DNA from: Dehalococcoidia bacterium UBA1141
GTDB taxonomy: Bacteria; Chloroflexota; Dehalococcoidia; Lucifugimonadales; UBA3495
Direction: 5' to 3'
Assembly: GCA_002311385.1 (NCBI GenBank)
Contig: DCAE01000109.1
Coordinates: 118,385-182,384, forward strand
DNA length: 64,000 bases
The notes under the pieces: generated by a model
Told to the model about the DNA's origin: nothing
Databases searched by the model: none
The model's input: the letters and a program-made list of their open reading frames with translations, nothing else
Translations under genes and position numbers: made by a program
Shown: positions 16,543 to 53,308 of the stretch, in pieces
How the letters are laid out: every line of letters begins with the position of its first letter
How positions within the stretch are numbered: the stretch's first letter is position 1

Positions 16543-16552
16543 CGGTCTGCCT

Positions 16553-17761: not shown

Positions 17762-17763
17762 CG

Positions 17764-18972
17764 ATGCCCACGACCGAGAGCAAACTTCTGGGGCCAAAGG
17801 GCTGGTCTTTCCCTGATGACCCAGCGGACATACGGTTAGCTCTCCTGGCCAAAATCGACGGTCTGAAAGAAACGCTGGAGGCCGGAGTAGACGAAGGAGA
17901 ACAAAACAGCACCCTGGCATCTGGGGTGGTTGACGCCTTGTATGACGCCGGGCTCTTTGCGATAAAATTACCCCGAGAGTTGGGCGGGGCAGAGGCCGAT
18001 TTGGTCACCCAGATGGAAGTGATAGAGGCGCTGAGCCGCATTGAGCCCTCTGCCGGATGGTGCACCATGATTGGGGCCACAGGGATCGGCCTTATCGGCG
18101 CCCACCTTCCAGATGAGGCAATCTCCCAAATCTTCCCCGGAGGCAGTGTTCCTAGGAGCGCCGGGGCTTTCATGCCCATGGGCAAGGCTGAGACCGTTGA
18201 TGGAGGTTACTTGGTCAACGGACGCTGGTCTTTTGCCAGCGGAATCCGTCACTCCCACTGGTTGTCGGCGGGCGCCCTTGTGGTCAAGGACGGGAAGACA
18301 ACCGATGAGTACATCAGGGCGGTGTTCCCAACTTCGGATGCAGTGATTCACGACAACTGGGATGTCGCTGGCCTCAAAGGCACGGGCAGCTGCGATTTTT
18401 CAGTATCAGGCCTCTTCGTTCCTCAGGAGTTCACCTACCCCCGGGCGGCCGCTGAGCCCAAACGAGGAGGCTCCTTATACCGCCTGGGATGGCCCGGTTT
18501 CGTCGCCTATGAGCATGCCGCATTTGCATTGGGAGTAGGCAGGCGAGCATTGGACGTGATTGTTGCGGAGGCCAGCGCGAAAATCCGTGGAATGCAACCG
18601 TCGCGTTTGGCTTCAAGGCCTTCGTTCCAAAAGTCCCTCGGCGAGTGCGACCTGAGATTGAAGGCCGCCAGGACGTTGGTGATCCACCTTTTGGAGGAGG
18701 CCTGGGATCAGGCCAGTCAAGGAGTCATCCCGGGGCCTCAACTTCAAGGGGAAATGCGTAGCTCCGCCACCTTCGCTACTTCGGTGGCTCTAGATGTTGT
18801 GACCACCGCTTTTCGCTACGGTGGTGGTTCGGCTCTTTATACCACCAGCGTTCTACAGAGGTGCCTGCGGGACCTGAACGCCGCTGCTCAACACCTGATG
18901 GTTAGCGATTCCGCATACGAAAATCATGGGCAGTTCATGTTGGATATCCCTGACGCTGACCCCATGGGTTGA
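17764..18972 (+). CDS. acyl-CoA dehydrogenase-fold flavoprotein (type-2 ACAD / group-D flavin monooxygenase-like)
   Basis: ATG 17764 lies 2 nt after the cbiG stop. Contains ...GLFAIKLPRELGGAEADLVTQMEVIEALSRIEPSAGWC... and DNWDVAGLKGTGSCDFSVSGLFVPQEF. Paralogous to 38449..39633. Confidence 0.8.
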   Translation: MPTTESKLLGPKGWSFPDDPADIRLALLAKIDGLKETLEAGVDEGEQNSTLASGVVDALYDAGLFAIKLPRELGGAEADLVTQMEVIEALSRIEPSAGWCTMIGATGIGLIGAHLPDEAISQIFPGGSVPRSAGAFMPMGKAETVDGGYLVNGRWSFASGIRHSHWLSAGALVVKDGKTTDEYIRAVFPTSDAVIHDNWDVAGLKGTGSCDFSVSGLFVPQEFTYPRAAAEPKRGGSLYRLGWPGFVAYEHAAFALGVGRRALDVIVAEASAKIRGMQPSRLASRPSFQKSLGECDLRLKAARTLVIHLLEEAWDQASQGVIPGPQLQGEMRSSATFATSVALDVVTTAFRYGGGSALYTTSVLQRCLRDLNAAAQHLMVSDSAYENHGQFMLDIPDADPMG

Positions 18973-19071
18973 AGGATTCCAGCGGTCGACTCTGCGAATT
19001 GGCCGTTGGCTTCCAGGTTTGGACCTACGATCTTATCAACCAACTTAGTAAATAAGTTTAGGAACGTAAAA

Positions 19072-19848
19072 ATGACCAACCGGGAATCACTTGGAAAATT
19101 ATATTTGGTAGGTTTGGGGCCAGGGGGGCTTGAGCATCTGACCCCAGCGGCGAAGGAGGCTCTGCAAAGGGTCGACTCTGTTGTGGGATACGGGCCCTAC
19201 GTTGAGCAAGTTGGTTCCTTGGTACAAGGCAAGAACCTGGTAACCATGGATTTGGGCCAAGAACTGGAGAGGGCAGCCAAGGCTGTGGAGTTGGCCTACA
19301 GTGGGCATCAGGTCGCCGTCGTGTCTTCCGGTGACGCGGGCATCTACGGAATGGCAGGGCCGGTTTTTCGGGTCCTAGTGGACCGTGGTTGGGACGGTGA
19401 AAATCCTCCACTGGAGGTCGTGCCCGGAATCTCGGCTATGCAATCCGCCGCCGCCATACTGGGCTCGCCGCTGATGCAGGACTTTTGCGCCATCAGCTTG
19501 AGTAACCTGCTCACGCCCTGGGAAACAATAAGGCGCCGCTTGGAAGCCGCCGCCCAAGGCGACTTTGTGGTCGCCTTATATAACCCCCGCAGCCGGAAGC
19601 GGAATCAGCAACTGCAGGAAGCCCGCAGCATCTTGCTGGAACACCGTTCCGGTCAAACCCCGGTAGGCATCGTTCGGGATGCCTACCGCTCCGGCCAAGG
19701 CGTAACCCTCACTGACCTAGAGCACTTGATTGAACATGTGGAATCGGTGGACATGGTGACAGTGGTTTTAATCGGCAACTCTACCAGCTTCATCCACCGG
19801 GAACACATGGTCACCCCCAGAGGCTACGAGGTAAAACAGGCTCCTTAG
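19072..19848 (+). CDS. cbiH: cobalt-factor III / precorrin-3B C17-methyltransferase
   Basis: KLYLVGLGPGGLEHLTPAAKEALQRVDSVVGYGPY and VSSGDAGIYGMAG. ATG 19072 is preferred over the upstream alternative start. Confidence 0.85.
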   Translation: MTNRESLGKLYLVGLGPGGLEHLTPAAKEALQRVDSVVGYGPYVEQVGSLVQGKNLVTMDLGQELERAAKAVELAYSGHQVAVVSSGDAGIYGMAGPVFRVLVDRGWDGENPPLEVVPGISAMQSAAAILGSPLMQDFCAISLSNLLTPWETIRRRLEAAAQGDFVVALYNPRSRKRNQQLQEARSILLEHRSGQTPVGIVRDAYRSGQGVTLTDLEHLIEHVESVDMVTVVLIGNSTSFIHREHMVTPRGYEVKQAP

Positions 19849-32509: not shown

Positions 32510-33163
32510 ATGACCCAGCCAGTTCAGCCCTGGGAGCAAGGTACTAGCCCTGTTAGGGTAGCCGTATGGTACGACTACATTTGACCCTGGTGCTACGTCG
32601 GCCTGGAAAGAGTCGACAAGCTGGCCAAAGAGTACGATATCAAGGTGGAGGGGCGGGCCTACCTCCTGCGTCCCGATACCCCCAAAGAGGGATCGCCTAG
32701 GCCACCCCGGCCCGGCGAAACCGAGGATGAATTGTCCGACCCACTGCGCAGTCAAGCCAGTGAAGCTGGCCTAATCATGCGCCCTCCCTCGGTAACCCCC
32801 AACACAATGTATGCGCTTCAGGCCACCGAGTATGCCCAGCAGCAAGGCTTGTTCATGGAGTTTCACCACGCCGCCTACGTGGCGTTCTGGGAGAACCGCC
32901 AGGACTTGGGCGATTTGGCCGTTATAGAAGAAGTGGGGCGGGAGGTTGGGTTAAATACCAAGGAAATGATGGAGCGGTTGGAAAGCAACCACTACGAAGA
33001 AGCAGTGATGGGCCAGTACCAGGAAGCATTGCAGTACGGCATCAGCGGCATTCCTACTTTTTTGGTCGGGAATCTGATGTTCACCGGTGCCCACCCCTAC
33101 GACATTTTCAAATCCGCCATGGGGCGGTTGCTGTCGCCCGAGGAACCGCCGGCGTCAAGCTAG
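32510..33163 (+). CDS. DsbA/FrnE-like thiol-disulfide oxidoreductase, candidate selenoprotein (U-P-W-C)
   Basis: ATG 32510 (GGGAG upstream) is in frame with ORF 32645..33163 through a single TGA at 32582..32584. The context VAVWYDYI-U-PWCYVG is the DsbA-family CxxC strand. The C-terminus carries GISGIPTF. Confidence 0.75.
32597..32617 (+). promoter_or_regulatory. SECIS-like hairpin 12 nt after UGA
   Basis: GUCGGC - CUGGAAAGA - GUCGAC, 6 bp including one G-U pair. Confidence 0.45.
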
Positions 33164-33192
33164 TTTCGGTAACCAAAGCGCGGATCGAATCT

Positions 33193-33236
33193 AAAAAATA
33201 GGGGCGCCCAACGGATGTGGGGCGCCCCTATTTTAT
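33193..33236. terminator. bidirectional rho-independent terminator
   Basis: AAAAAATAGGGGCGCC - loop - GGCGCCCCTATTTTATT, between convergent genes. Confidence 0.85.
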
Positions 33237-33269
33237 TATCTTGGCTCTGGTCTGAGTTTACTTGATGAA

Positions 33270-35183
33270 TCAGTCGTCACTGGCCGAGGCAGGAACCAGC
33301 CCCCCTCCCGAGCCCGATAGGCCAGCATGGGTCAGACCGTAGTTCACCGCATGAAGCCTGGCGTAAACACCGCCCGACTCAAGTAATTCTTTGTGGTTCC
33401 CAACCTCTGCCACGCGTCCTTTGTCTAGGACAACAATCTTGTCTGCATTGCGAATGGTGGATAGGCGGTGGGCAATGACAATGGATGTTCTGCCCTTTAA
33501 GATGCGCTTTAAAGCATCCTGGATAAGCAACTCAGTCTGGGTGTCTATGTTGGCGGTGGCCTCATCCAGGATGATAACCCTGGGGTTCCCAACGATGGCC
33601 CGGGCGAAGCTCAATAGCTGACGCTGACCCACGCTGAGGTTCACACCGCGCTCCGCCAGCACCGTATCGTAGCCGTCTTCCAGTCCCATGATGAACTCAT
33701 GGGCCCCAACGGCTTTGCCCGCCGCTATCACTTCCTCATCGGTTGCATGTTGAACGCTGTATCGAATATTGTCGCTGATGGTGCCGGAAAACAGATAAGG
33801 CTCTTGGAGCACCATGCTCATCTGCCTAACCATCGACTGGCGATTCACCTGACGTATGTCATAACCGTCCATGGTGATTCTGCCCTTGGTGACATCAGCG
33901 AATCGGTGAATCAGGGTGACCATAGTGGTCTTTCCGGCTCCGGTTGAGCCGACTAAGGCGACATTTTCTCCGGGTTTAATATCGAGGTTTATGTCAATCA
34001 ATACGTCCACTTCTGGGACGTAATGAAAGGTCACATCCTCAAACCTGATGTGGCCTTTTATGGGGGGCATGTCTTCGGCGTCTTCTTCGTCGATGACCTC
34101 GGGCTTCAGGTCCAATACCTCGAAGATTCGGACTCCTGCGGCCATAGCCCGTTGCAATTGGCTGTACTGCATCGTCAGGTGGCGGACAGGTTCGAAAAAC
34201 CTCTGTATCCACAGAGCGAAGGCAACCAAGACGCCCCACTCCAGGCTTCCGCCTTGGGCCATGATGCCCCCAACCAGCACCACACCGAAGCCCATGCCGA
34301 TCCCTATCAGTATCTCCACCATGGGTTGTAGCCCACCGGAGAACCGGCTGGCTTCCAAGTTCGCGTCCAAGTGCTCTCGATTCAAGCTTTCGAAGTGCTT
34401 CAGGTTCACGTCCTGGCGGTTTAGACTCTCCACCACGCGGACACCGGTGATGTTTTGGTTGTACTCACCATTTACCATGGCGATCGCGCGGCGTATCCGC
34501 ATGAAGGAGTGGCGAGCGAACTTCTGCCAGTACCCCAGGATAAAGAACAGCACAGGCACGATACTCATGCTCACCAGAGCCAATCGCCAATCGATGAACA
34601 GCATCATGACGACAATTCCCAACAGGCTGAGAATGTCCGAGAAACTTTGGACAATCAGCTCAAAAGTTTCTTGTAGTTGAAGCACATCGCTCTGGCTGCG
34701 GGACATGATGCGGCCCACGGGGGTCCGGTGGAAAAATGAGGGAGACAATGTCTGAAGGTGGTTAAACATGGCAGTGCGGAGGGAATACAAGATCCCTTGC
34801 CCCACCTTGGGCATGTAGACCAACTGGACATAGTTGGCCAAGAAGTGCATCACCGTGACCCCAACAAAGATGCCGCCCACTACGTGCAGCCGCCACAATT
34901 CCCCTTCGTTGATGGCCCAGTTGATGCCCAGCATCATGAGCAGGGGAATACTCACGTTCCCCACTGTGTACAACAAGACCGCCAAAAGGCTAATAATAAC
35001 GTCTCGTTTATAGGGCTTTATGTAGCTTAGCAACCTGATCACAACTTTGTGGTCGTATACATTCCCGACGATGGTCTCATCGGTGAGGTTGTCCATGTTG
35101 GGTGTGTTTATGCCCCCGGCCTGAAGCCCGCGCATTCCGCCCATCATGCCGCCAAATCCGCCTCCCGGGCCTGCCGCGCGCAT
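33270..35183 (-). CDS. ABC exporter, fused permease/ATPase subunit (type I exporter)
   Basis: Six-TM region, then Walker A GSTGAGKTT, signature LSVGQRQ and Walker B IILDEATA. Gly-rich N-terminal tail. Confidence 0.9.
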   Translation of the reverse strand: MRAAGPGGGFGGMMGGMRGLQAGGINTPNMDNLTDETIVGNVYDHKVVIRLLSYIKPYKRDVIISLLAVLLYTVGNVSIPLLMMLGINWAINEGELWRLHVVGGIFVGVTVMHFLANYVQLVYMPKVGQGILYSLRTAMFNHLQTLSPSFFHRTPVGRIMSRSQSDVLQLQETFELIVQSFSDILSLLGIVVMMLFIDWRLALVSMSIVPVLFFILGYWQKFARHSFMRIRRAIAMVNGEYNQNITGVRVVESLNRQDVNLKHFESLNREHLDANLEASRFSGGLQPMVEILIGIGMGFGVVLVGGIMAQGGSLEWGVLVAFALWIQRFFEPVRHLTMQYSQLQRAMAAGVRIFEVLDLKPEVIDEEDAEDMPPIKGHIRFEDVTFHYVPEVDVLIDINLDIKPGENVALVGSTGAGKTTMVTLIHRFADVTKGRITMDGYDIRQVNRQSMVRQMSMVLQEPYLFSGTISDNIRYSVQHATDEEVIAAGKAVGAHEFIMGLEDGYDTVLAERGVNLSVGQRQLLSFARAIVGNPRVIILDEATANIDTQTELLIQDALKRILKGRTSIVIAHRLSTIRNADKIVVLDKGRVAEVGNHKELLESGGVYARLHAVNYGLTHAGLSGSGGGLVPASASDD

Positions 35184-36985
35184 TAGGCGTCACCTCCGTC
35201 GTCACTGGCTATAGCAGCGTCCAAGAGAAGCTCTTCTTGGGGCCGCAGTTGTAGTTCGTAGATGTCCCGATACATGCCGCCCTGAACCATCAGCGCTTCG
35301 TGGGTGCCCTGCTGTGCCACTACGCCATCTTTCAACACCACGATAAGGTCGGCATCCCGCACGGTGCTCAAACGGTGGGCAATAACAAAAGTGGTGCGGC
35401 CTTTCATGACCCCGATCATGGCTTCATGAATCTGACGCTCGGTTTCCACATCGACGCTGGATGTGGAGTCGTCTAGAATCAATATTGGCGGATTCAAAAG
35501 TATGGTGCGGGCGATGGACAAACGTTGCCTCTGACCACCGGACAGGGTCGTTCCCCGCTCACCGACACTGGTGTCATAACCGTCCGGCAACGACATGATG
35601 TGGTCGTGAAGTTGGGCCACTTTGGCGGCCGCTTCAATCTCCTCTAAAGAGGCATCCACGACGCCATATGCTATATTGTCGCGAATATTTCCGCCAAAGA
35701 GGAACACATCTTGTTGCACGATTCCCACGTTGCGGCGTAGCGAAGCAAGGGTGAAATCCCGTATGTCCCGGCCGTCTATGGTGATTCGGCCCTCGGTCAC
35801 GTCATAAAACCTGGGCAGCAGATTGACCACGGTGGTCTTGCCGCTGCCGGGCGCTCCGAGAATGGCCGTGACCTGGCCCGGTTCGGCATCGATGCTCAGG
35901 TGTTTCAAGGCAGGAAGCCTTGCTTCATAGGCGAATGAGAGGTCTTCAAACCTTACGTGGCCTTTAGACCGGTCCAAGTCGTCAGCCTCTTTCTTCTCTT
36001 CCACAGGCGAAACTGCGTCCAAAACATCGAAGAGCCTCTGGCCGGAAGAGATGGCCCGGGAGAAGCTATTGATGATGAATGCGGACATGCGTATGGGGAA
36101 GGTGAGCTGGTTCAAATACAGAATGAACATGGTCAGCTGACCAGGAGTTATGTCTCCCCTGATTACCTCCCAGCCTCCCACCCACAGAATCAAAGCCAAT
36201 GCCAAGGTGAAGTAGAAGGTCATCCATGCGCTGTTGGTTCCCTGCAACCGTTCGGATTGGAAGTACTCCCCCCGCAACCGTTGGGCGCTTTCAGCGAACT
36301 TTTCCTTCTCAAACTCCTCGGAGCCGAATGCCTTCACCACATGAATGCCCACCAGGTTCTCTTGCAAAACGGTGACCGTCTCACCCATCACTTCCTGGAC
36401 TCGGGTCCACATTTCCCGGAGGCGGCCCATGACCAAGGTGGTGCGAAAGACCAAGAATGGCACGAAGGCAAGGCTAATCAGGGCCAGTTTCCAATCTATG
36501 ACCACCAGGATGGCCGTGATGGCCACTATTCGCAACACTACTTCCAACGAGCGAACCAACCCCATGTTCACGAACCGGCGTACCGCCTCAACATCGGCGG
36601 TTGCCTTGGACATCAAGTTACCGGTGTGCTCTTTGTCGTGATAGGCGAAGCTGAGGTGTTGCAGCTTGTCGTAGAGTTGATTGCGGAAATCATAGGAGAC
36701 CAATTGGGACAGGGAGTCAACCGCGTAGGTGCGAGCAAAATCCAAGAAGCCGCGGACCAAGCTGGCGCAAAGGATAGCGGTGGCCAATAACACCAGGGTG
36801 GAACGGGCTACATCCTTACCGCCTATGCCTTCATCGGTGACGGACACCAACCGGTCAATTGAGGTTCCGAAGAGGTAGGGTATAAGCAGGGAAACGCCAA
36901 CGGCGCCGAGGAAAGTTAGGTAGGCCAAAGTAAGGCGGGTTGGGTACCGCCAGGCCATACGGGTGATGCGGATCAGGATTTGCAT
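35183..36985 (-). CDS. ABC exporter, fused permease/ATPase subunit, partner of 33270..35183
   Basis: Walker A GAPGSGKTT, LSGGQRQR and ILILDDSTS. Its stop overlaps the partner start (TAATG). Confidence 0.9.
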   Translation of the reverse strand: MQILIRITRMAWRYPTRLTLAYLTFLGAVGVSLLIPYLFGTSIDRLVSVTDEGIGGKDVARSTLVLLATAILCASLVRGFLDFARTYAVDSLSQLVSYDFRNQLYDKLQHLSFAYHDKEHTGNLMSKATADVEAVRRFVNMGLVRSLEVVLRIVAITAILVVIDWKLALISLAFVPFLVFRTTLVMGRLREMWTRVQEVMGETVTVLQENLVGIHVVKAFGSEEFEKEKFAESAQRLRGEYFQSERLQGTNSAWMTFYFTLALALILWVGGWEVIRGDITPGQLTMFILYLNQLTFPIRMSAFIINSFSRAISSGQRLFDVLDAVSPVEEKKEADDLDRSKGHVRFEDLSFAYEARLPALKHLSIDAEPGQVTAILGAPGSGKTTVVNLLPRFYDVTEGRITIDGRDIRDFTLASLRRNVGIVQQDVFLFGGNIRDNIAYGVVDASLEEIEAAAKVAQLHDHIMSLPDGYDTSVGERGTTLSGGQRQRLSIARTILLNPPILILDDSTSSVDVETERQIHEAMIGVMKGRTTFVIAHRLSTVRDADLIVVLKDGVVAQQGTHEALMVQGGMYRDIYELQLRPQEELLLDAAIASDDGGDA

Positions 36986-37448
36986 TCAGTCGATCGCGCT
37001 CTGGTCTCTTACCATAAAGTTGCTTTCGGCCCAATTAAGCAATCGCTGGCCACTCTGGCGTTCCGGCCACTCTCGCATCAATGAAAGATAAGGCTTTGCG
37101 GTCACAAGTCGCGCCTAACCATATTGCTCCCAGGCAGTCCTCAACTAAAGCAAACCATTAAGGCGTCCCGCAATGATAAATCGGCAGGTATTGGCGGATA
37201 ATGGTAGTTAATCAAAGGCCAGGATTGGGAATCGGAAGGCGATTTAGGCTATTGGTAAGAAACTAGTCCTAGTGAAAATCTGTGGCTATTAAGGCCATAA
37301 TAACCCCATTTAGCAGCCAGTTCAAGGGAAAAGGACGGGTGGGACGGTCCATTAAGCCTAGCTGAAAACCCTTCTTCTGCGAAGCAAACGGTCTGGGGAG
37401 CTTGTGAACGACCGGGGCAAACCCATATCGGCTTGGCCAGGCCGGAGG

Positions 37449-38182
37449 TTATTTTCGGGCCAGAACTTCTACCGCTACCACGGCCTGATTCTTCGTGCGA
37501 GCGTTTCGGAATGTGCGTAGTACGGCAGCGTCTTTGAAGCCTGCTTGGCGGAACTCCTGAAGGAAGACTACGCCCTCCTTGGCTCCAGCCACTCAAGCAA
37601 ACCAATTCTCAGGTGTTGGTTCTACTTTCTCTGAACCGGCTTCCCGCAGAACAAGCTCCGCCGCAAATACGCATCCTCCAGGCTTCACCACTCGGGCAAG
37701 CTCTGTGAATATCTTTGAACGTTCCGAGTTCAAGTTGAATATCCCATTAACCAACGCCACATCTACGGAGAGATCTTCCAAGGGCAGGCTTTCTGCGTCA
37801 GAGTGAAATATCTTGATATTGGTGGCCCCGGATTCCAGCACGGCCTGTTCCATGCTCGATAGCATCGCCGAACTAAAATCCACAGCCAGTACTTGACCTT
37901 GGGGCCCAACACGCCCAGCGGCAATGATGGAGTCCAATCCTGCGCCGGAGCCCAAATCCAATACCGTCGCTCTTGATGGAATCTCCGCCAACAAGGACAG
38001 GTTAGAGACGCCAGCGAATGCGTCTACAGCCACCGCGGGCAACCCCCTGGCGGGATAGCGCCGACACTCTCGGCTAAATCCCGGCCAACGGGGAACGGAT
38101 GGTCCTCATCAGGGTGTTGAGCAGCCCTGCTATATGCTTCTCGAACGCCCTCTCTAAGACCCGAAACATTTATTTCATTCAT
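37449..38182 (-). CDS. ArsM-like class I SAM methyltransferase, candidate selenoprotein, also carrying a one-base frameshift
   Basis: The track ORF 37593..38042 continues in frame past TGA 37595..37593 for 47 codons to TAA 37451..37449 (PENWFA-U-VAGAKEGVVFLQEFRQAGF...). The N-terminal 47 codons from ATG 38182 (MNEINVSGLREGVREAYSRAAQHPDEDHPFPVGRDLAESVGAIPPGG) are shifted at a G5 run (38043..38047 on the + strand). SAM motif VLDLGSGAGLD. Confidence 0.7.
37560..37580 (-). promoter_or_regulatory. SECIS-like hairpin 12 nt after UGA
   Basis: AAGGAGG - GCGUAGU - CUUCCUU, 7 bp including one G-U pair. Confidence 0.5.
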
Positions 38183-38266
38183 TTCCAACAGACCCGGCGA
38201 TAAAATCCTTACTCTGTCGATAATAGGCGTAAATTTTTAGTCAATCAATTGCATTTTGTTTATTTC

Positions 38267-38290
38267 ATCGATAAAGTGGCGTTTATCGAT
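38267..38290. promoter_or_regulatory. perfect 9-bp inverted repeat, operator-like (ATCGATAAA-N6-TTTATCGAT)
   Basis: Lies in a visibly AT-rich spacer upstream of the ArsM-like gene. Further CGATAA half-sites occur at 38198..38204 and 38217..38223. Confidence 0.5.
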
Positions 38291-38448
38291 AATTTTCCTA
38301 AATAAATATCATAATGCATGGTTTATGTAATAAGAGTCGAACATGATTGAGGCAGGGAGAAGATTTCAGCAGGGTAATTGTGGGCCGACCCGGTCGAGCC
38401 TGTGCTGATGAGCCGGTGTTGCTGAGCCAGGGGTGTGGGCCAACAGGC

Positions 38449-39633
38449 TCAGAAACTGCCCTGGGGTTCCAACCCCAGATAAAACTGGCCAGCAGTCTCG
38501 TAGTTGGTGAGGCGGCCTTGGATGTGCTGGGTAATCACCCGGACATCCTGAAACTGGCGCTGAATAGGGTTGCTGGCAAAAATCGCGCTGGAGCCGCACA
38601 GGTTATAGGTGATATCAACTACCTCCGCCGCTTTACGTATTGCGAAGGTGGCTGCTAGGCGTAATTGAATGCGCTCTTCGGTGGAAACAGCTTGGTTCTC
38701 ACATGCGCTTTTCCAGATTGACGAGACACTCTGGCCAAGAAAGGCGTCGGCCGACTGCAGAATCGCTTCCCCTTCGCCTATGAGCCTTTGGGCCGTGGAT
38801 TGGTCTTGTAAAAGATTGGATGTCCTGAGAGGATTTTTCGTCTGCGAAAGTTCGATTGCGGTTATCAAGCTGGAGCGAGCGATGCTAAGGGCCACGGTTG
38901 CATCACCCGAGGCGAAAAGCAGGGTCCTGGGAATAACGTACAGGGGTCCGTCTTCCCGCCGAGGGTCTGCCAGGTCATAGGTCCGCCCACTGGGTACGAA
39001 CAAGTTATCCACCTGAAAGCTGAAGCTGCCAGTACCCCGGAGTCCGCTTACCTGCCAAGAATCTTCCAGAAAGGTTGCTTCAGACTTAGGAATGAGCATC
39101 ACTCTGGGATTTTCGCCCGCCGCCAGACCGCTTTGCTGTTGATTCACGGGGTTGATGGGAGCGAGGGCGGCCAGCCAATTGGCATGGCCGCTGCCGGTGC
39201 TGAAATCCCAGGTGCCGCTTAATCGATATCCCCCATCCACCGGAACGGCGTTCACCGACGAAGTGGGAGGACCGTTTGCTACGACGGCTCGGCTCTCGCC
39301 CCAAATCTCTCCTGCGATTTTCTCCGGCATAATGACCGAGGCTGTTGCGAATACATTATTCTGGTTTACACACCATGCAGTACTGCCATCGACTCGGGCG
39401 AATGTTCTCACGACTTGCAGAAAGTCCGGGAGACTCAACTCCGTACCCCCTAATGAGCGTGGCACAAGAAGGCGGAATAGGCCTCGCTCGGCCATTTCGC
39501 CTACCAAATCCGGGGGTAACCGACGCTCGCAATCGATGCGGTCCGTTTCTTGGGCGATGCGGTCGGCTAACTGCCGGGCAGCTTGGAGTAGCTCGCCCTG
39601 GTCGGTTTCTGAGTTGTTTTGTTTGATTGGCAT
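38449..39633 (-). CDS. acyl-CoA dehydrogenase-fold flavoprotein (type-2 ACAD / group-D monooxygenase-like)
   Basis: ERGLFRLLVPRSLGGTELSLPDFLQVVRTFARVDGSTAWC and DSWQVSGLRGTGSFSFQVDNLFVP. Paralog of 17764..18972. Confidence 0.8.
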   Translation of the reverse strand: MPIKQNNSETDQGELLQAARQLADRIAQETDRIDCERRLPPDLVGEMAERGLFRLLVPRSLGGTELSLPDFLQVVRTFARVDGSTAWCVNQNNVFATASVIMPEKIAGEIWGESRAVVANGPPTSSVNAVPVDGGYRLSGTWDFSTGSGHANWLAALAPINPVNQQQSGLAAGENPRVMLIPKSEATFLEDSWQVSGLRGTGSFSFQVDNLFVPSGRTYDLADPRREDGPLYVIPRTLLFASGDATVALSIARSSLITAIELSQTKNPLRTSNLLQDQSTAQRLIGEGEAILQSADAFLGQSVSSIWKSACENQAVSTEERIQLRLAATFAIRKAAEVVDITYNLCGSSAIFASNPIQRQFQDVRVITQHIQGRLTNYETAGQFYLGLEPQGSF

Positions 39634-39777
39634 CAGCCGTCCGAACGGTGAGTCTTGCGCTGCGGAAACACTATCTGATAATGCTGCGCACTTAAAGGCC
39701 GATGTCCCGTTAACTGGGACATCGGCCGATTCTGGTCATAGGAGCCCGATGGATCCTGGGCAAATCGACAAGAGGTA

Positions 39778-40242
39778 TTAGGCCTCTATCAACCCCTGTT
39801 CTATGGCCTTCGAAATCAGGTCTTTTCCCTCATCCAAGCGCGCATAGATAGCTTCCGAAGCGGCCGCAACCAACTCTTGGTCAAGGAGCTTGGCTTCTTC
39901 AGGAAAGCCCGCTTCCGCCAGCAACTCCTGGCCATTATCCCGTATCTGATTCAAGCCCCAAGCTATTTGAGACTCAGTATCCCTCACATCATCGGGGAAC
40001 TCAGTATGGGAACCTCCGGCTCCAAGTTTGTCGTAGCCGCCCTTGTGCCAATGCCCTCGTGGGCCGTGGGTATCGTAACGAATGGCTTCTTCGCCTCTGA
40101 CATCAACCCCAAATGTTGGCCCTCCCATCTTGCTTTTCAGGCACCTGACGGGCCAGAGATAAATCTTGATATCGCCTGATTCAGTCAACGGTCGCACCAG
40201 AACCTTTCCCAGATACGACTCACCATCAATCATCGTAGCCAT
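39778..40242 (-). CDS. hypothetical protein (His/Gly-rich central motif)
   Basis: 154-aa ORF with clean ends and coding-like composition. Contains RYDTHGPRGHWHKGGYDKLGAGGSHTEF. I recognise no family. Confidence 0.55.
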   Translation of the reverse strand: MATMIDGESYLGKVLVRPLTESGDIKIYLWPVRCLKSKMGGPTFGVDVRGEEAIRYDTHGPRGHWHKGGYDKLGAGGSHTEFPDDVRDTESQIAWGLNQIRDNGQELLAEAGFPEEAKLLDQELVAAASEAIYARLDEGKDLISKAIEQGLIEA

Positions 40243-40561
40243 TCAAATTCTCTCCTTGAATATTTTAAGAGCGCTGCACTTAGGGTACGCCCTCACAGGA
40301 GATATTAACACAGAGTCCCAGCCTCAAGTCAGTGGACAAGCATCTCCGCCGACGCTACCATGCCTTCACATTGGCTACTGGAGATTAGATCGCAGGCTGA
40401 AGAATACTGGCCGGAGAATCCAGCCGGGAACGGGTGTAAGATCCAGCACTTCCCAACACCGGCCATGATTCTTGCTTTCAATACCAATCCCACTGGCCGA
40501 TCCTGCCGTAAGAAATGTTGAAATAATATTGCCCCAAATTTTCGATAACAGGAGCGATGCA

Positions 40562-41662
40562 ATGGGAAGTTCCATAAGAGGTAATCGTAGTATCACAGCC
40601 GTTTTGTTACTGGTGCTCTTTGGGCTATTCTTGGGAATAGCGTGCACGGGTCCGGCGGGTCCGGCAGGTGTCCAAGGGCCCCAAGGGGCTGCCGGCGAGC
40701 AGGGGCCTCAGGGTATCGCCGGTCCCCAAGGGCCAGCAGGAGTTGCGGCACAGGCAAGCGCCGCAATTTCTAATCAGCAATCGCAGCAATCCGAAGAAAC
40801 CGAAAACGAGAACGAAAATTCAGCATATGGTAAACCGACTATCTGGGGGGATCAGCCGGCCTACGGGATAAGCTTCAGCTCCCCCAATGGAATTGCGATA
40901 GATTCATCGGACAACGTATACGTCACCGAATTTCGCGGGAACCGGGTGCAAAAATTTAGTTTCGATGGAGTCTTGGTAGGGCGGTGGGGCTCGGAAGGAA
41001 GCGAAGATGGTCAATTTCAGAATCCAACGGGAATCGCCATTGATGGCGAAGGCAACGTTTATATCTCCGAGAGCGGCAACCACCGTGTGCAGAAATTCGA
41101 CTCAGACGGCAATTGGATCACTTCATGAGGGTCGCAAAGGTCGGGCGAAGGAGAATTTCTTTCTGCGATGGTTATAGCTATCGATTCCGATAGCCGCCTC
41201 TAGGTGAGCGATTGGGGAAATGACCGTATTCAAGTTTTTGATTCCAATGGCGCATATTTGGATAGCTGGGGGTTGAGTGGAAAAGAGGAAGGCCAGTTGT
41301 TCACCCCCACTGGGGTCAAGGTAGATAGCGAGGGCAATGTTTGGGTCGTTGACCGAGGCAACAACCGGGTCCAGAAATTTACCCGGGATGGCGAGTTTCT
41401 GGCCACGTGGGGCGCCGCAGGCGACGACCAAGGCCAATTTGGAGTTCCAACCAGCATCGCCTTTGATAGCGACGGCAACTTTTATGTCTCCGAGGTGGAG
41501 AATTCACGGGTGCAGATATTCAATTCGGAAGGGGAATACATATCCGATCTTGCTTCGGCGTCACTCTCCAATCCCCACGGCTTGGCTTTCGACAGCAATG
41601 GAGACCTCTATGTGGCTGATACGGGAAACAATTTCATAAAGAAATTCAGCTTGGCAGATTAG
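40562..41662 (+). pseudogene. secreted collagen-like (Gly-X-Y) / NHL-repeat protein interrupted by two in-frame stops
   Basis: ATG 40562 (AGGAG upstream), signal peptide ...LLLVLFGLFLGIAC, GPAGPAGVQGPQGAAGEQGPQGIAGPQGPAG, then NHL repeats. One frame runs throughout, with TGA 41126..41128 and TAG 41201..41203 inside repeat consensus positions. Confidence 0.7.
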
Positions 41663-41698
41663 CCAAAGCTTCCGCAAACCTTCAAGGAGGGTTCAAGC

Positions 41699-42283
41699 AT
41701 GACCACCAGTCCAATAGACCCGAACCGAGTGCTATTGACCGGAGAGAACCCATATATCCGTCTGAGCGAAACAGACAACGGCCCGGTTACCACGGATGCC
41801 AGCTTTTGGCGGATCCTGTTTTCACCGGGTGGTCCCGGTCACGTCCTGTTCTTGCAGAGCGAACTAACTGATAACCAACCCCGGATATATACCGACAATA
41901 TAGCGATGACCCGCTGGTTGCAAAAAGAGATTCAAGGCACAATTAATCCAACATTCGGTAACTTGGAACTTGCGGAGGTTGAGTCGAGCTTCGCCAGTTC
42001 CGGGAACCTCAGGACGTCTTGGACGGAGACGGTAACTGCCAAGAACGAAATAATTGCTCTGACTTGGGAGTCTCTGGGAGAATCCTTTCTGAGCCATAGC
42101 TTTCCGGGGAGCAACCCTGACCGGCCACACGGTGTTTCCACGGTTTTGATTCCTGCAAACGCAGCCAAAGTCATTATTAACGGAAAAACAGCATCGGGAC
42201 GGCCATTTCCTCGTCAGCGAGATAGCCGAGAGCATAGCACTTGCGCCCTGGCATTTTCAGAATCTTGGCTACTTCCTTACTAA
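41699..42283 (+). CDS. hypothetical protein
   Basis: 194-aa ORF with GGAGG upstream. No motif I recognise. Confidence 0.55.
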   Translation: MTTSPIDPNRVLLTGENPYIRLSETDNGPVTTDASFWRILFSPGGPGHVLFLQSELTDNQPRIYTDNIAMTRWLQKEIQGTINPTFGNLELAEVESSFASSGNLRTSWTETVTAKNEIIALTWESLGESFLSHSFPGSNPDRPHGVSTVLIPANAAKVIINGKTASGRPFPRQRDSREHSTCALAFSESWLLPY

Positions 42284-42344
42284 CTAAGGCCGGACTAACA
42301 AAAGCCGGATTAGCAACCAGACACGAAGAATTTTTAGAGGTTGA

Positions 42345-43919
42345 ATGAAATACGACGTTGTTATCGTCGGCGGTGGCGCTGCCGGATCGGTGTTGGCCAG
42401 CAGGCTAGCCGCAAACGCGAATACCTCAGTTCTTTTGTTGGAAGCAGGGCCGGATTATCCCGACCCTGCCAACCTGCCCGACGAAATCAAGTTCGGCCAC
42501 ACGAGATTTGCGGAAGCTCCGGACTCGGAACACAACTGGGCTCTGCGAGGAACCATCACAGAGGAGCAGGGGGAGATTCACGTGGCCCAAGGCAAGGTGA
42601 TTGGCGGAGGCTCGTCAATCAACGGTCAGGCTATGCAAAGAGGGTTCCCCGAGGATTTTGACGCTTGGTCGTCTATGGGCAACGATGAATGGTCCTACGC
42701 CAAGATTCTGCCTTACTTTAGGAAGTCGGAGCAGGACTTGGACATTCGTGATGATTTCCATGGGACGGATGGGCCAATGCCGGTCAGGCGCCGTCAGTCG
42801 GGCCCCATGCCGGATATCCAGAAGGCCTTCCACGAGGCATGTTTGCAAGAGGGCTACGGAGCGACGGAAGATACCAATGGCCCAAATCCATCGGGCATCG
42901 GCGTGTCCCCATCAAACAACCTAGACGGCGTTAGAATGAGCGCGGCTATGACCTATCTCGGGCCAATGCGCCACTGCCTCAATCTCACCGTGAGGGGAGG
43001 AGTTTCCGTCCGGAAGGTCCTGTTCCAAGATCTTAAGGCCGTGGGTGTTGAGGCCGAAAGCGGCGGCGAGGTCTTCACCGTTGAAGCAGACCGGGTGGTC
43101 TTGAGCTCCGGGGCCATAAAGTCGCCCCACCTGCTAATGCTCTCAGGAATCGGCCCCCAAGACCAGCTTCAGGAATTTGACATACCGCTGGTCCATGAGC
43201 TCCCCGGAGTGGGACAAAGCCTATGGAACCACCTCAGCGCCCAAGTCGCCTTCAAGGTCAAGAACGGGGCCACCCTCGTTGGCGACGTTGATGCGGTGCA
43301 CTTTAGCCTGCATTACACGTCACAAGGCTCCAGCGAAGCCAACGATATGCTACTGAGGACCAGCTCGGTGGTCGACGAAAGGGTGGAAAAGGTGCCCGGC
43401 CTGCGCACGATGTACCTGGCCGGAGGAGTCTCGCCAGAAGAGATGGGAAGAATATCGTGTACTCTTGGGTTGCCCGAAGGTTCAGGATACGTCAAGTTGG
43501 CATCCGCCGACGCAAGCGAACAGCCGTCATTTAACTACTGCTTTCTACAACATCCAAACGACATTCGGCGGGTGAGGGAAGGCGTGCGTATGTCGGTAAA
43601 ACTTCTAGAGTCAGACCCCTACAAAGACGTGGCCGATTACAGAATACAGCCAACGGATGAGGTTCTGTCCGACGACGACGCTCTGGATTTGTGGATACGT
43701 CAAACCGTGGGCACAGCCAGACACGTATCCGGCACCTGCAAGATGGGACCCGATTCAGACCCCATGGCCGTGGTTGATCAATACTGCAGAGTCAAAGGGG
43801 TAGAGCGATTGTGGGTGGTTGATGCGTCGGTGATGCCGAGAGTTCCCAGGTCCGGAGGCTGTCACGCCACTGTCCTCATGATTGCGGAACGGGCTGCCGA
43901 CTGGATTGGGGCAAGTTAG
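42345..43919 (+). CDS. GMC-family FAD oxidoreductase (choline dehydrogenase-like)
   Basis: YDVVIVGGGAAGSVLASRLA, GKVIGGGSSINGQ and the C-terminal GTCKMGP...LWVVDASVMP. Confidence 0.9.
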   Translation: MKYDVVIVGGGAAGSVLASRLAANANTSVLLLEAGPDYPDPANLPDEIKFGHTRFAEAPDSEHNWALRGTITEEQGEIHVAQGKVIGGGSSINGQAMQRGFPEDFDAWSSMGNDEWSYAKILPYFRKSEQDLDIRDDFHGTDGPMPVRRRQSGPMPDIQKAFHEACLQEGYGATEDTNGPNPSGIGVSPSNNLDGVRMSAAMTYLGPMRHCLNLTVRGGVSVRKVLFQDLKAVGVEAESGGEVFTVEADRVVLSSGAIKSPHLLMLSGIGPQDQLQEFDIPLVHELPGVGQSLWNHLSAQVAFKVKNGATLVGDVDAVHFSLHYTSQGSSEANDMLLRTSSVVDERVEKVPGLRTMYLAGGVSPEEMGRISCTLGLPEGSGYVKLASADASEQPSFNYCFLQHPNDIRRVREGVRMSVKLLESDPYKDVADYRIQPTDEVLSDDDALDLWIRQTVGTARHVSGTCKMGPDSDPMAVVDQYCRVKGVERLWVVDASVMPRVPRSGGCHATVLMIAERAADWIGAS

Positions 43920-43949
43920 TACCGGCTTAACCGATGCGCAAAAACACCA

Positions 43950-43976
43950 AGGCGCTTCCCGGACCGGGAAGCGCCT
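43950..43976. terminator. bidirectional terminator hairpin
   Basis: AGGCGCTTCCCGG-A-CCGGGAAGCGCCT, flanked by A/T runs on both sides, between convergent genes. Confidence 0.8.
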
Positions 43977-44008
43977 ATTATTATTCCCATAGCAGACTGT
44001 TTATATTG

Positions 44009-44611
44009 CTAGTCTTTCGGCACCATCAGCCATTTTTGTTGGGCGGCGGCTGGGCTTAGCCACCGCTCATGGGCCTCTTGCCTGCCTGGCGGCACCTCCA
44101 CCCCCAGTCCGTCAGCCAAACGCGTCATGAAATTGAACTGGCATGTAATTAGGGCCACCGATAGTATTTCCTCATCGCTTAAGCCAAGGGCTCGAAGCGC
44201 TTCCACGTCCGAGCGCTGCATCGAAGTGGGATCTCTGGTAAGTTTCGACGCATAATCCAACATTCCTCGGGTTTGAGGGTCTAGTTCAGCATCGTTATAG
44301 TCGTGCATCACGTGGCTGGCCAACTCGGGGTCGTCGGAGTGCTGACGGAGGAACCCTCCGTGAGCCATCGTTCAATATCGGCATTTGTTTATCACCGAAA
44401 CCACCGTGGCGATGGCTTCTTCCTGAACTCTGGTCAGATTTGAGCCCCCAAAGAACAAGGCCTGGCTGAGGTTAAGCACCGATTCCATCGCTTTCGGGTT
44501 GATGGACATGACCTTAATCACCGGGGGCGGATCGCCGGATTTTGGCTCTGTTTCTCGTATCCAAGACATATCGTCACCATCCGGATGGTAGATTTGGTGA
44601 GATAGTACCAA
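44009..44611 (-). CDS. AhpD/carboxymuconolactone-decarboxylase-family peroxidase-related protein, candidate selenoprotein (C-R-Y-U)
   Basis: Track ORFs 44372..44611 and 44009..44368 are one frame joined by TGA 44374..44372: ...VVSVINKCRY-U-TMAHGGFLRQH.... This matches the CMD-family CxxC-x3-H motif. The start may be ATG 44569 (MSWIRE). Confidence 0.75.
44345..44361 (-). promoter_or_regulatory. SECIS-like hairpin 10 nt after UGA
   Basis: ACGGAGG - GUU - CCUCCGU, a perfect 7-bp stem. It can be extended by 3 more pairs across a C-C mismatch. Confidence 0.55.
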
Positions 44612-48922: not shown

Positions 48923-48965
48923 GGGCGGCCTCGTGAGCGTGCGAGGCCGCCCTACCCTTTTATTT
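48923..48965 (+). terminator. rho-independent terminator
   Basis: GGGCGGCCTCG - loop - CGAGGCCGCCC followed by TACCCTTTTATTT. Confidence 0.8.
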
Positions 48966-48990
48966 GAAACACGTGATAGAACAAAGCTTG

Positions 48991-51900
48991 ATGAAAGAAC
49001 GACAGCAACAAGCTCCGATGCAGACTGAGCAAAACATTACTCCATCGATCAAAACCATACGCTTCGCCCTTGGCGCTGCCGCTGTGGTCGTGTTTTTGGC
49101 CTTGGCTTTGCTGGCTACCTGCGGCGGAGATTCTCTTGATACAAACGCCGACTTACTTCCCACGCCGGCCAGCACGCTGACCGAGGCAACCATTACGCCT
49201 AGCGCCGAACCGACACCCCACCAGGTTAATACGCCGGGTCCAAGTGCTCATGAAGGCGACGAAGGACTGGTCTTGGGCCAAGAGACCGGCGAGAGCGTTT
49301 ACCAAGGCGCCAGTTGCCAGGCTGATGCGCCGGTCAGGAACTTCGACGTAGCGGCGATAAACATCGAGATTTCCCTAAACCGTTTCCTGGATTTCGACCC
49401 TATAGGCCGAATGTACGTCTTGGAACAGGACCTGCAGCGGGCAAGGGGAGAGGAAGCCCAAAACCGGACGGCCAGGCAAGACCAAGCGGAGCCTGCAGTA
49501 TCAGTTGGATTGCAGGGAGACGCCATCCAGCCATTGACTTTGCGGGTCAATCAAGGTGATTGCCTGAGGCTCACCCTTCGCAACGGATTGGAAGACGGAC
49601 AGGCTGCCAGTCTGCACCTCCACGGTTCTTCGCAGCACATGGCCGATAGTGGCGCTCCGGCAGTGGCGGCCAACACGGAGGCGGTGGCTCTTCCCGGCGC
49701 ATCGGTGACCTACGAATGGATGGTGGAAGACGACCAACAGGAGGGGACCCACTATTTTCATAGCCACGGCGATACGCGCGAGCAGACCAGCCATGGCTTG
49801 TTTGGGGCGGTAATCGTGGAACCCAAGGACTCTCTCCACTTGGATCCGCTGACCGGAGGAGAATTGAGAAGCGGCTGGTCAGCCGTGATTAGGGACAGCA
49901 CGGGTAGTGATTTCCGGGAGTTCGCAATCTACTACCATGAGATTGGCAACGAAGCCTTCACCATCCAGAACAAAGACGCATCCCGAGGGTTCGGCCTCCG
50001 CGGGCGTGCGGTTCCCTTCGTTGACGGCCTGACTGGCGCCTACAAACCCGGCGGCAGGGCCATGAACTATCGCAGCGAGCCCTTCCTCAACCGCATGGAA
50101 TTGCAGAAAGACACCGTGGGCAGCTTCGACCCTTCCCAGGCCTATATCTCCTACACATTTGGCGACCCGGCCACCCCCATAGCCAGAAGCTACTTGGGAG
50201 ACCCGGTAAAACAGCGGGTGATTCATGGCGGATCAGAGGTGTTTCATGTGCACCACGTCCACGGCGGAGCGATACGGTGGCGACGGCAACCCGGTGTTGA
50301 ACCGACCAACTTCGACACCGGCCTGAACAAGTTTCCGCCCCTGCTGCCTGAAGCAACAGCCCGGATAGACTCCCAAGCCGTGGGGCCAGCGGAAAATTAC
50401 GATGTGGAAAACGAGTGCGGCAGCGGCGGTTGTCAGCAGAGTGTGGGCGACTTCTTGGCCCATTGTCATGTGGCCCACCACTATGTTGCTGGAATGTGGA
50501 TGATTTGGCGAGTCCAGAACACATTGCAAGACGGCATCGTGTCCCAAGACGGTCTTCCTCCGTTGATCGAGTTGCCGGACCGAAACGGTCTGGTTGCGCC
50601 CGCTGTGACGTCGGACAAGCTGGCAGATTGGATCGAAGCTCAACTGCCTCCGCCAGGGAAACCTAAGGGCTACGACGCCTCTGTGTTGGACTGGGCAAAG
50701 GATGGTGACCTATATCTGAATGAACCGGATACGGAACTAGAGTGGGCCTATTTTAAGTCTCCCAACCCTGGACAGCGGCCCGCCTTGTACTTCCACCCGC
50801 TAACCGGCAAGCTGGCTTATCCATATCTAAGGCCCCATCTCGGCAAACGGCCCCCCTTTGCGCCCAACCACGGTCCGGCGCCATTCTTGGAACCCTTCCG
50901 CAATGGTACCGACCCACCGGAGCCGGGGCAGAACGGCCCGTGGAGTCTTTGCCCTTCGGGAACTAAACAAAAAGAATTCGCCATTCACGCAATCAACTTG
51001 CCCATCATTCTAAACCAGAGAGCCAACCTGGTGGACCCGGTGGGTCAACTCTACGTGCTCAAGGAGCAAGAAGCGGCGGTGCGGGCCAACAACCGGCTTA
51101 AGCAGCCCCTGGCAATCCGGGCCAACGCTGGCCAAGACTACGTGGATGTGGTTTTCAAGAGCGAGCTGGAAGACACGGGTGAGAACAATTTTTTCAGCAA
51201 GGTGAATATTCACATCCACTTTGTGCAGTTCGACATCCAGGGCAGCGACGGCGTGAACACCGGCTTCAATTACGAAACGTCGGTCCGCCCGTTCACCGTG
51301 GAGGGAGAGACCCTGTCCTCGCTAGTTCAGGCCGGAGAAGATACTTTGGCCCTGGGCAGTGCTGACCGGTTCCAACCTAGCGCATTGGTGGGTGTGGGTA
51401 TGGACCAAGACCGGACTTTTGAAGCCCGCCGGATTCGGGCCATTGAGAATAATTCGCTCACTTTTGAAGAACCCCTGAAGTTTGACCATGACCGGGGTGA
51501 GATTGTTAGCACCGAGTTTGTGTGGTACCGATGGTTCCCTGACGTCCAATTCGGCACTGCCTATTTCCACGACCACGTCGCAGGGCTGACGTCGTGGCGG
51601 CATGGCCTCTTCGGTGCGCTGATTGCCGAACCCCCGATGCTACCTATCACGACCCAAAGACCGGCGAGGAGTTGTCCAGCGAACCTTTGGTGGACATCCG
51701 GACCAATCAGCCCGTTTCCGTAGACCTGACGGGAAGCTTCCGGGAAGCGGTGCTGTTTATCCAAGACGACAACCCGTTGACCAATGTCGGCCTCTCCAGC
51801 GGCAGCGCCTACAACCTTCGGGTGGAGCCTATGGAGAGAAGAGGCGGCGTGCCTTCGGAGCTATTCAACAGCCGGGTCCACGGTGACCCGGAGACACCCA

Positions 51901-53308
51901 TCATCGAGGCGAATCTGGGTGACACAGTGGTCATCAGGGGCTTGGTTGCGGCGACCAATGACGTACACACTTTGCACTTGGATGGACATTGGTTTCGGAC
52001 AGAGACGTTCAGCGCCACTTCGCCTCCAACCAACAACGTCCATATCGGTATCTCGGAACGGTACGATCTGACGATAGCCGCTGCGGGCGGCCCTCAAAAC
52101 ATGCCTGGGGACTATCTCTACTACAGCGGGCGGTCTTTCAAGCTGGAAGAAGGGAGTTGGGGCATCTTGCGGGTGAATGGCCCCGATGCCGGGATCAGTC
52201 TCCAAAATCTGCCTGGCCGGGAAAACCTGATGGAACCCGCTGCATCAGTGTGTCCTGCGGACTCTCCAAGTAGAGAGTTCGCAGTATCTGCTGTGGAGAC
52301 TTCCCTTGATATGCTGGGCGGGGAAACAGGGAAAATCTATGTGTTAGACCACCAAAAAAACGCAATTACGTCGGGCGTGGCAGAGCCGGAGCCCCTAGTT
52401 CTGTCGGTAAACGTTGGAGACTGCGTGACAGTTAAACTAACCAACGGCACCCTGGCAGGGCCGGTATCCTTCCATGCCGACATGTTGGCCTACGACCCGG
52501 CAGACAGCATGGGCAAAACCTCGGATTTAACCAAGCGCCGGGCGCTGACCAAACCGTCCCTGTGGGTGAGTCCCGAATCTACACGTTCTACGCTCACCCG
52601 AAGGTTGGCGAGACCGTGGCATTGATACGGGACTGGGGAAACGTGCTGGAAAACCCAGGGTTGGGCCTATACGGGGCAATCATCGTTGGACCGCTCGGAG
52701 CTACTTACCCCGACCCCGTCACCGGGCAGGACGCATCGGCAGATTCCGGTTGGCGAGTGGACGTGCATCCGCTTTCCGGCGAGAGCTACCGGCGCTTCGC
52801 CCTGTTTTTCCAGGATGAAGACGAAGTAATAGGAACCCACATCATGCCCTACACCGAGGCGGTTGCATGGACCCTGGGCATCAACTACCGCACTGCGCCA
52901 CTAGCTACGCGGGTCGGCGCTGAATTCAGCCCATACCAGGTTTACGACAGCCGCCTGCACGGTGATCCGAAGACGCCGCTGTTGGAGGCATTTGCCGGGG
53001 ACCCGGTGAAGATACACGTTCTTGCGCCCTACAGTGAGCAGGCCCACGTGTTCACCGTTGAAGGACATCAGTGGCCCTTGGAACCGGGACTAAAGGGCAC
53101 GGACCTGTTGGATTCTATACAACTGGGCGGACTGGATGCCCTCACGCTGGTCTTGGATGGTGGGGCCGGAGGACGACACGCACTCCCCGGAGACTACGTA
53201 TACGGCGATCACCGGGAGGCCTACCGAGAGGGCGGGTTGTGGGGGCTATTCAGGGTATATCCTTCGGAGCAACAAGGGACAGGGCTCCGGCCATTTCCTG
53301 ACCGTTAA
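48991..53308 (+). pseudogene. giant multicopper oxidase lipoprotein (three tandem two-cupredoxin units, about 1439 aa) broken by two one-base frameshifts
   Basis: Track ORFs 48964..51723, 51594..52625 and 52562..53308 join seamlessly at 51631..51636 (...GLFGALIAEPP|DATYHDPKTGE...) and 52509..52516 (...DPADSMG|QNLGFNQAPG...). Lipobox LLATCGG. Cu-ligand patterns are HYFHSHG, HVHHVHGG and HCHVAHHYVAGMW. Three units each open with R/K-x-F-A/D-V/I..A. Confidence 0.75.

Follow-up and report, generated by a model that had tools for sequence, protein, structure and literature searches.

In a 64,000-nt stretch of DNA from Dehalococcoidia bacterium UBA1141 (assembly GCA_002311385.1, contig DCAE01000109.1, positions 118,385 to 182,384; hereafter the window, numbered from its first letter), three in-frame UGA codons lie within about 12 kb, at 32582-32584, 37593-37595 and 44372-44374. 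From comparative sequence evidence, we hold with high confidence that all three are selenocysteine (Sec, U) codons in three unrelated redox- or thiol-type enzymes: a DsbA/FrnE-like oxidoreductase, an ArsM-like methyltransferase and an AhpD-like protein. A sequence-only reading of the window had placed these UGAs on catalytic Cys columns of thiol-redox families and proposed recoding to Sec through downstream SECIS (selenocysteine insertion sequence)-type hairpins. Alignments with FrnE 5cnw, CmArsM 4fr0/5eg5 and 2pfx/3c1l, and conservation of both TGA and hairpin across dozens of species in catalogued families, bore this proposal out. The window is 99.99% identical to contig PicMicro_10000009 (387.6 kb) of Joint Genome Institute (JGI) metagenome 3300003702, and at least five further independent assemblies of the same species are about 99.5-99.7% identical to it. 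The host is a marine SAR202-type Dehalococcoidia (Chloroflexota) bacterium; SAR202 bacteria are among the most abundant bacterial groups in the dark ocean and in sponge microbiomes.

In scans for related loci, one genome per species was taken and the codon was read at the aligned column; the loci compared have 47-89% protein identity to the window genes. For all three genes, the in-frame UGA stands at the position of a Cys in solved homologues, is conserved in orthologues, and is flanked on both sides by conserved protein sequence. Further, all three families are catalogued as selenoprotein families with the same motifs (PMC13188914, PMC1088965), and NCBIfam holds selenoprotein-specific models for relatives of all three proteins. 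Because the families are already listed, the three genes are best regarded as new members of known selenoprotein kinds.

The DsbA/FrnE-like thiol-disulfide oxidoreductase gene (32510-33163, + strand) has 217 codons including one Sec, as judged from its translation, Pfam, a FrnE alignment and 59 relatives. Its product matches Pfam DSBA (PF01323) at 125 bits, against a cut-off of 25.6, and combines the DSBA thioredoxin-like domain with an N-terminal CxxC motif in which the first Cys is replaced by Sec. The UGA (32582-32584, +) lies in the context WYDYI-U-PWCY, giving a UxxC motif U-P-W-C, and aligns with the first Cys of CPWC in Deinococcus FrnE (5cnw), the nearest solved homologue. All 59 loci that cover the column, out of 60 found, have TGA there, as do the orthologues of two closer SAR202 loci (L270 and L271). 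After a 12-nt spacer the UGA is followed by a SECIS-type hairpin, GUCGGC-CUGGAAAGA-GUCGAC (32597-32617, +), which has a 6-bp stem and a 9-nt loop in the window and stems of 7-8 bp in relatives. The stem shows no variation among 52 distinct sequences; the Gly, Leu and Asp codons within it, 4- and 6-fold degenerate ones included, have zero synonymous variation in 59 sequences, whereas equivalent codons elsewhere in the gene vary freely. The protein resembles DsbA-like selenoprotein form 1 (PF01323, UxxC; PMC1088965, PMC13188914) in its DSBA domain and in having U-P-W-C in place of C-P-W-C, and the lack of an evident signal peptide, judged by eye, is counted as a further likeness. It differs in that a pair of ATP-binding cassette (ABC) exporter genes adjoins it in 26 of the 60 SAR202 loci, a neighbourhood that we did not find described in the cited literature. 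Within the joint three-gene reading, and at the same high confidence, the protein would be a cytoplasmic DsbA/FrnE-like oxidoreductase of the UxxC type.

The AhpD-like gene (44009-44569, - strand; 186 codons including one Sec) encodes a 'peroxidase-related' protein of the carboxymuconolactone decarboxylase fold, which scores 131.4 bits against TIGR01926 (curated cut-off 81.8) and has the family's CxxC-type motif followed by His. Its UGA (44372-44374, -), in the context NKCRY-U-TMAHGG (CxxU motif C-R-Y-U), aligns with the second Cys of CxxC in solved 2pfx/3c1l, NKC-RY-U-TMAH standing against inkCfyClvaH of 2pfx. The hairpin ACGGAGG-GUU-CCUCCGU (44345-44361, -) begins after a 10-nt spacer and has 7 bp. 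The stem is paired in nearly every relative, with a closing pair that is G-C in 46, A-U in 13 and C-G in 7; 20 double compensatory changes occur at one pair and 18 changes from A-U to G-U at another, and the covariation score exceeded those of all 500 shuffles. A lower 3-bp extension of the window's hairpin is unsupported in relatives. TGA occupies the column in 74 of 80 loci. Five relatives (L064, L076, L078, L079 and L080) instead have Gly (GGG or GGA), hence a C-R-Y-G active site, and have lost the hairpin: nearly the same downstream peptide (HGGFLRR) is encoded by different codons, which break the pairing, so that these loci serve as a natural control. Such variants, with Gly instead of Sec or Cys, are without mention in the cited literature. 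At two other loci, we observed TAA at the Sec column (L077) and a second stop just before it (L045). The AhpD-like selenoprotein family (TIGR01926 'peroxidase-related enzyme', CxxU) was first described from the Sargasso Sea metagenome (PMC1088965). The window gene shares with it the fold, the CxxU motif with Sec on the second Cys, and the SECIS-type hairpin with G in a small apical loop; there is no difference of substance, and the gene is the SAR202 orthologue.

The third gene (37449-38188, - strand) encodes an ArsM-like S-adenosylmethionine (SAM)-dependent methyltransferase with one Sec, and is frameshifted in this assembly. The UGA (37593-37595, -), in the context NWFA-U-VAGA (UxxG motif U-V-A-G), aligns with the Cys224 column of CmArsM (4fr0/5eg5) and with that of 5evj. 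TGA was found in 31 of the 31 loci that cover the column, among 35 loci from several phyla. A pattern-based scan missed the SAR202 loci of this gene; protein search and contig look-ups recovered four closer, syntenic ones (L270-L273), all with TGA at the column. Two database homologues (P0254 and P0255) are full length and have Cys there. In other full-length database translations the column is occupied by W (P0252, P0258 and P0259) or R (P0300); the W cases, which are from short JGI contigs, are probably TGA translated with genetic code 4, to judge from the translations. The hairpin AAGGAGGGC-GUA-GUCUUCCUU (37560-37580, -) follows after a 12-nt spacer and has 9 bp, of which a core of 7 bp is kept in the family and the outermost pair is unsupported in relatives. 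Two compensatory double changes (L153 and L169) and six changes from A-U to G-U were seen in the stem, and covariation support was graded weak. The frameshift is due to a lesion at 38049-38061 (-). There the window has gained 2 nt (38060-38061) and lost 9 nt (between 38049 and 38050) compared with L176 (ERZ27247699) and L178 (ERZ23486250), two other assemblies of the species that are 99.6% identical and have an intact 246-codon open reading frame (ORF) with a single TGA. Because the window assembly has further 1-nt deletions that are absent from five other assemblies, the frameshift is possibly an assembly artefact; the alternative is a strain-specific lesion.

The label 'ArsM-like' is used for this protein because its scores lie below curated cut-offs and the other ArsM cysteines are missing. 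It has Pfam Methyltransf_31/25/11 matches, and its best solved matches are the ArsM structures 5evj and 4fr0, as expected for an ArsM-type Rossmann SAM domain. It falls below every curated NCBIfam cut-off: 139.8 against 263 for PRK11873, 160.8 against 510 for ArsM_AhpD_UU, its best-scoring model, and 140.6 against 460 for MTase_UXPK_star. The As(III)-binding cysteines of CmArsM are Cys174 with Cys224, plus Cys72 and Cys44. Of these columns, the window protein and every relative inspected retain just Cys224, as Sec: Val stands at Cys72 (FAGVSN) and Gly at Cys174 (VNGIFNL), and an N-terminal Cys is lacking. Thus the protein is ArsM-like, and only in part an arsenite methyltransferase. With the arsenite methyltransferase selenoprotein (NF008823, UxxG; PMC13188914), it shares the ArsM-type SAM fold and the Sec in UxxG on the CmArsM Cys224 column. 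Unlike the NCBIfam fusion families ArsM_AhpD_UU, MTase_UXPK_star and ArsM_DUF2284_UU (PMC13188914), it has a single domain and a single Sec, and lacks a C-terminal UXPK.

Taken together, the three hairpins are uninterrupted stem-loops that begin 10-12 nt after the TGA, as the sequence-only reading had noticed, with stems in the DsbA-like, methyltransferase and AhpD-like genes of 6, 9 and 7 bp, respectively. They have geometry in common, not sequence, and were assessed by family-wise pair counts rather than by one joint covariance model. The first loop base is an invariant G in all three family alignments. Each family presents a stem-loop about 11 nt downstream of the UGA with G in a small apical loop and with signs of selection at the RNA level. 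A comparable hairpin follows 8.5% of the 1,964 TGA triplets in the window, and the chance that all three given TGAs would have one is about 6e-4. Rfam at gathering thresholds gave tRNA-Gln as its sole match, and no Rfam family matched the hairpins. The strong evidence for the three sites is comparative, i.e., the conservation of codon and hairpin, not the single folds. In being in-ORF hairpins about 11 nt after the UGA, with a conserved G in a small apical loop, the elements resemble bacterial SECIS elements (E. coli fdhF type; bSECIS consensus of Zhang and Gladyshev); they differ in that their sequences are family-specific, and their binding by SelB is a prediction.

Direct observation covers the sequence features, the extent to which they are conserved, and the constraint on the hairpins at the RNA level. 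By analogy with established bacterial Sec decoding, we infer SelB binding and Sec insertion: the in-ORF hairpin 10-12 nt after each UGA would act as a bacterial SECIS element and recruit SelB-GTP-Sec-tRNA(Sec) to the ribosome, and Sec would be inserted at the position of the reactive Cys of the homologues.

Several observations weigh against reading the codons as Sec. No selA, selB, selD or tRNA-Sec gene was found in the window, as the sequence-only reading had also reported, within the 10 kb on each side, or in related loci totalling about 1.1 Mb. A tblastn search of the window and all loci with E. coli SelA, SelB and SelD gave no match, ARAGORN found no tRNA-Sec in 1.06 Mb of loci, and protein searches that started from the SelA of E. 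coli and of Aquifex brought up proteins of Enterobacterales and Aquificota only, with no SAR202 SelA. The DsbA hairpin shows no covariation, its stem being invariant in the aligned relatives, and the fold z-scores of the single hairpins, -1.0 to -1.7, are not exceptional by folding energy. Finally, in the window's copy of the methyltransferase gene the first 41 codons, which precede the Sec codon, are in a different frame from the rest. A residual doubt about Sec persists because the decoding machinery was not seen directly. The same lack leaves some room for the idea that the UGAs are read as a standard amino acid (Trp, Gly or Cys) by a near-cognate or suppressor tRNA, and the W at the column in translations P0252, P0258 and P0259 and the Gly at the column in five AhpD-like relatives point the same way. 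That idea is nevertheless very unlikely. In the window, one in three long ORFs has a TGA stop; the recoding sites coincide exactly with the reactive Cys columns of known Sec/Cys families; the hairpins match bacterial SECIS elements in position and in their G-first loop, and are lost where the codon is Gly; and the simplest account of the W residues is that TGA was translated with a different code table, as far as translations can tell. Further, SelA, SelB and SelD COGs are listed for the SAR202 bins bin90 and bin22 (Slaby et al. 2017, PMC5649159 Table S4), and the genomes of these bins (MPND01 and MPMM01) carry TGA-containing AhpD-like (L026) and DsbA-like (L117) orthologues. Chloroflexi have been reported to contain an unusual tRNA-Sec of the 8/4 form (PMC5389517).

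That the TGAs are nonsense mutations or sequencing errors, and the genes pseudogenes or artefactually split, might be suspected in this assembly, given the two nonsense codons of the NHL-repeat gene described below, the methyltransferase frameshift, and 1-nt homopolymer deletions at 51631 and 52516. We give this explanation almost no credence; it is effectively refuted by cross-species conservation, since the TGA column is kept in 59/59 DsbA-like loci, 31/31 methyltransferase loci plus the four closer ones, and 74/80 AhpD-like loci, with the coding sequence conserved on either side and the hairpins retained. The TGAs are also the same in independent assemblies of the species. Another explanation is that translation stops at each TGA, in which case the hairpins would be attenuators or pause sites and the downstream parts would be separate or untranslated; gene callers do yield such fragments. 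Against true stops, the AhpD helices, the DsbA thioredoxin domain and the C-terminal segment of the methyltransferase align with solved structures across the TGA and in frame, the upstream fragment of the DsbA-like protein would have only 24 residues, and the truncated products would be without an active site. We therefore regard termination at these codons as highly improbable, and Sec insertion as the preferred reading for all three genes.

Elsewhere in the window, TGA is an ordinary terminator, in agreement with the earlier statement that it is not globally reassigned: among 50 ORFs with 200 codons or more, 17 end in TGA, including hemA and cbiD, whose TGA stops overlap the start of the next gene. 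A codon-usage log-odds screen for in-frame stops discriminated too weakly, missing two of the three sites, and ORF-extension and cross-species screens were used in its place. Examination of ORF extensions over all 64 kb gave no further Sec candidate. Two same-frame TGA junctions were rejected as recoding sites and are simply adjacent genes: 5671-5673 (-), between alaS and ruvX, and 18970-18972 (+), where a gene for a 455-aa protein (17605-18972) is followed by a precorrin-type methyltransferase gene (19006-19848). A pseudogene accounts for a fourth in-frame TGA within the 12 kb in which three had been counted; the three stand as Sec candidates and the fourth does not. It lies at 41126-41128 in a gene for an NHL-repeat, collagen-like lipoprotein (40562-41662, +), and a TAG (41201-41203) follows 25 codons after it; both stops are present in three independent assemblies. 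Orthologues with 72-73% identity (L190 and L191) have TGG (Trp) and TAT/TAC (Tyr) at the two positions, and no hairpin follows the TGA, which serves as a negative control. Given Trp in the orthologues and the lack of a hairpin, this TGA was rejected as a Sec codon and read as a lineage-specific nonsense mutation; the gene is a real pseudogene or split gene.

The three genes do not form a single cluster. Between the DsbA-like and methyltransferase genes are two half-size ABC exporter genes (33270-36985, -; 637 and 600 aa; MsbA/Smd-like). The order ArgS - methyltransferase(U) - ABC - ABC - DsbA-like(U) was found in L270/L271 (= OY761986.2), L272 and L273, with insertion sequences between the methyltransferase and ABC genes in L270-L272; compared with the window, the ABC genes of these loci are 86-90% identical and the DsbA-like genes 87-89%. 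The same ABC pair accounts for the 26 DsbA loci with adjoining exporter genes mentioned above. In the gene calls of L272 there are two tandem methyltransferase genes, each of 201 aa and trailed by a short fragment (47 and 45 aa); TGA was confirmed for the first only. In the window, a block of about 6.5 kb, containing a flavin-monooxygenase-like gene, two unknown genes, the NHL pseudogene, a GMC oxidoreductase gene and the AhpD-like gene, separates the methyltransferase gene from ArgS. The closest AhpD orthologue (L001, 86%) lies beside the monooxygenase-like gene and one unknown gene, not beside ArgS, and in less closely related genomes 0.3-3.6 Mb of DNA separates the AhpD-like gene from the DsbA-like one. 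Because the methyltransferase and DsbA-like genes flank a conserved ABC pair and the AhpD-like gene is on a separately rearranged block, the density of three in 12 kb is partly conserved synteny and partly juxtaposition.

The sequence-only reading had taken this density as a sign of a selenoprotein-rich organism, for which it is a weak pointer, with two of the genes in a conserved cluster and the third on a rearranged block. To gauge breadth, about 0.84 Mb of flanking DNA in relatives was screened for in-frame TGAs; a TGA qualified if it was conserved, or if it had both a hairpin and a redox motif. Five further selenoprotein genes of three further known families were found. These were glutaredoxin/NrdH-like genes (VYTQPG-U-FSC; L014 nt 6182, L016 nt 6256 and L019 nt 6279 on the - strand) with a hairpin 10 nt after the TGA, and, with hairpins of the same kind, a Prx/TlpA-like gene (FFATW-U-PVC; L022 nt 4315) and a deiodinase-like gene (FGSIT-U-PP; L070 nt 1327). 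All five lie 1-3 kb from the AhpD-like gene in relatives. The result suggests about six selenoprotein genes per Mb and a moderate selenoproteome of perhaps 10-25 genes per genome, well below what three in 12 kb would imply; this is a rough figure, as the screen was insensitive and the flanks may be enriched. In sum, the predicted genes show Sec use by SAR202 in at least six enzyme families: AhpD-like, DsbA-like, ArsM-like, glutaredoxin-like, Prx/TlpA-like and deiodinase-like. About 2.7-3.5 kb past the left end of the window, at 15892-16629 of locus L184, lies a gene for a 245-aa Thioredoxin_3/DUF7088 protein that is called at full length; it belongs to a type of thioredoxin-like lipoprotein with selenoprotein relatives (NCBIfam Rcas_1661 family).

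As predicted from the window, standard annotation breaks such genes. In public gene calls the AhpD-like gene is in two pieces of 65 and 119 aa, the methyltransferase is shortened to 122-146 or 198 aa, and the DsbA-like protein to 177-181 aa. Of the 120 database proteins that best match the methyltransferase, most have a length of 194-200 aa, being cut at the UGA. Separate from recoding are the defects of the assembly itself. Five other assemblies have 1 nt more than the window at 51631 (a run of C6, against C5 in the window) and 1 nt more at 52516, which suggests indel errors of this assembly. The two deletions break a large Cu-oxidase-like gene at about 48964-53000 (+), which is in pieces in the window and is a single ORF of 1315-1430 aa elsewhere.

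The arrangement methyltransferase(U) - ABC - ABC - DsbA-like(U), which several SAR202 genomes from the deep ocean and from sponges have in common, raises the speculative and rather unlikely possibility that it is one functional module for a non-arsenic soft substrate. If so, the Sec-dependent ArsM-like enzyme, having lost all the other arsenic-binding cysteines, would act on, for example, a compound of selenium or tellurium or a thiol; the product would leave the cell through the heterodimeric ABC exporter, and the Sec-containing DsbA-like oxidoreductase would service the redox step. For selenoprotein specialists the families are not new; of modest interest are how widely SAR202 uses Sec, the conserved methyltransferase - ABC - DsbA neighbourhood, and an ArsM-like subfamily that is poor in cysteine. 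Because public gene calls cut these genes at the UGA, metabolic reconstructions of SAR202 under-count redox enzymes, and the demand for trace selenium in the deep ocean may be under-appreciated.

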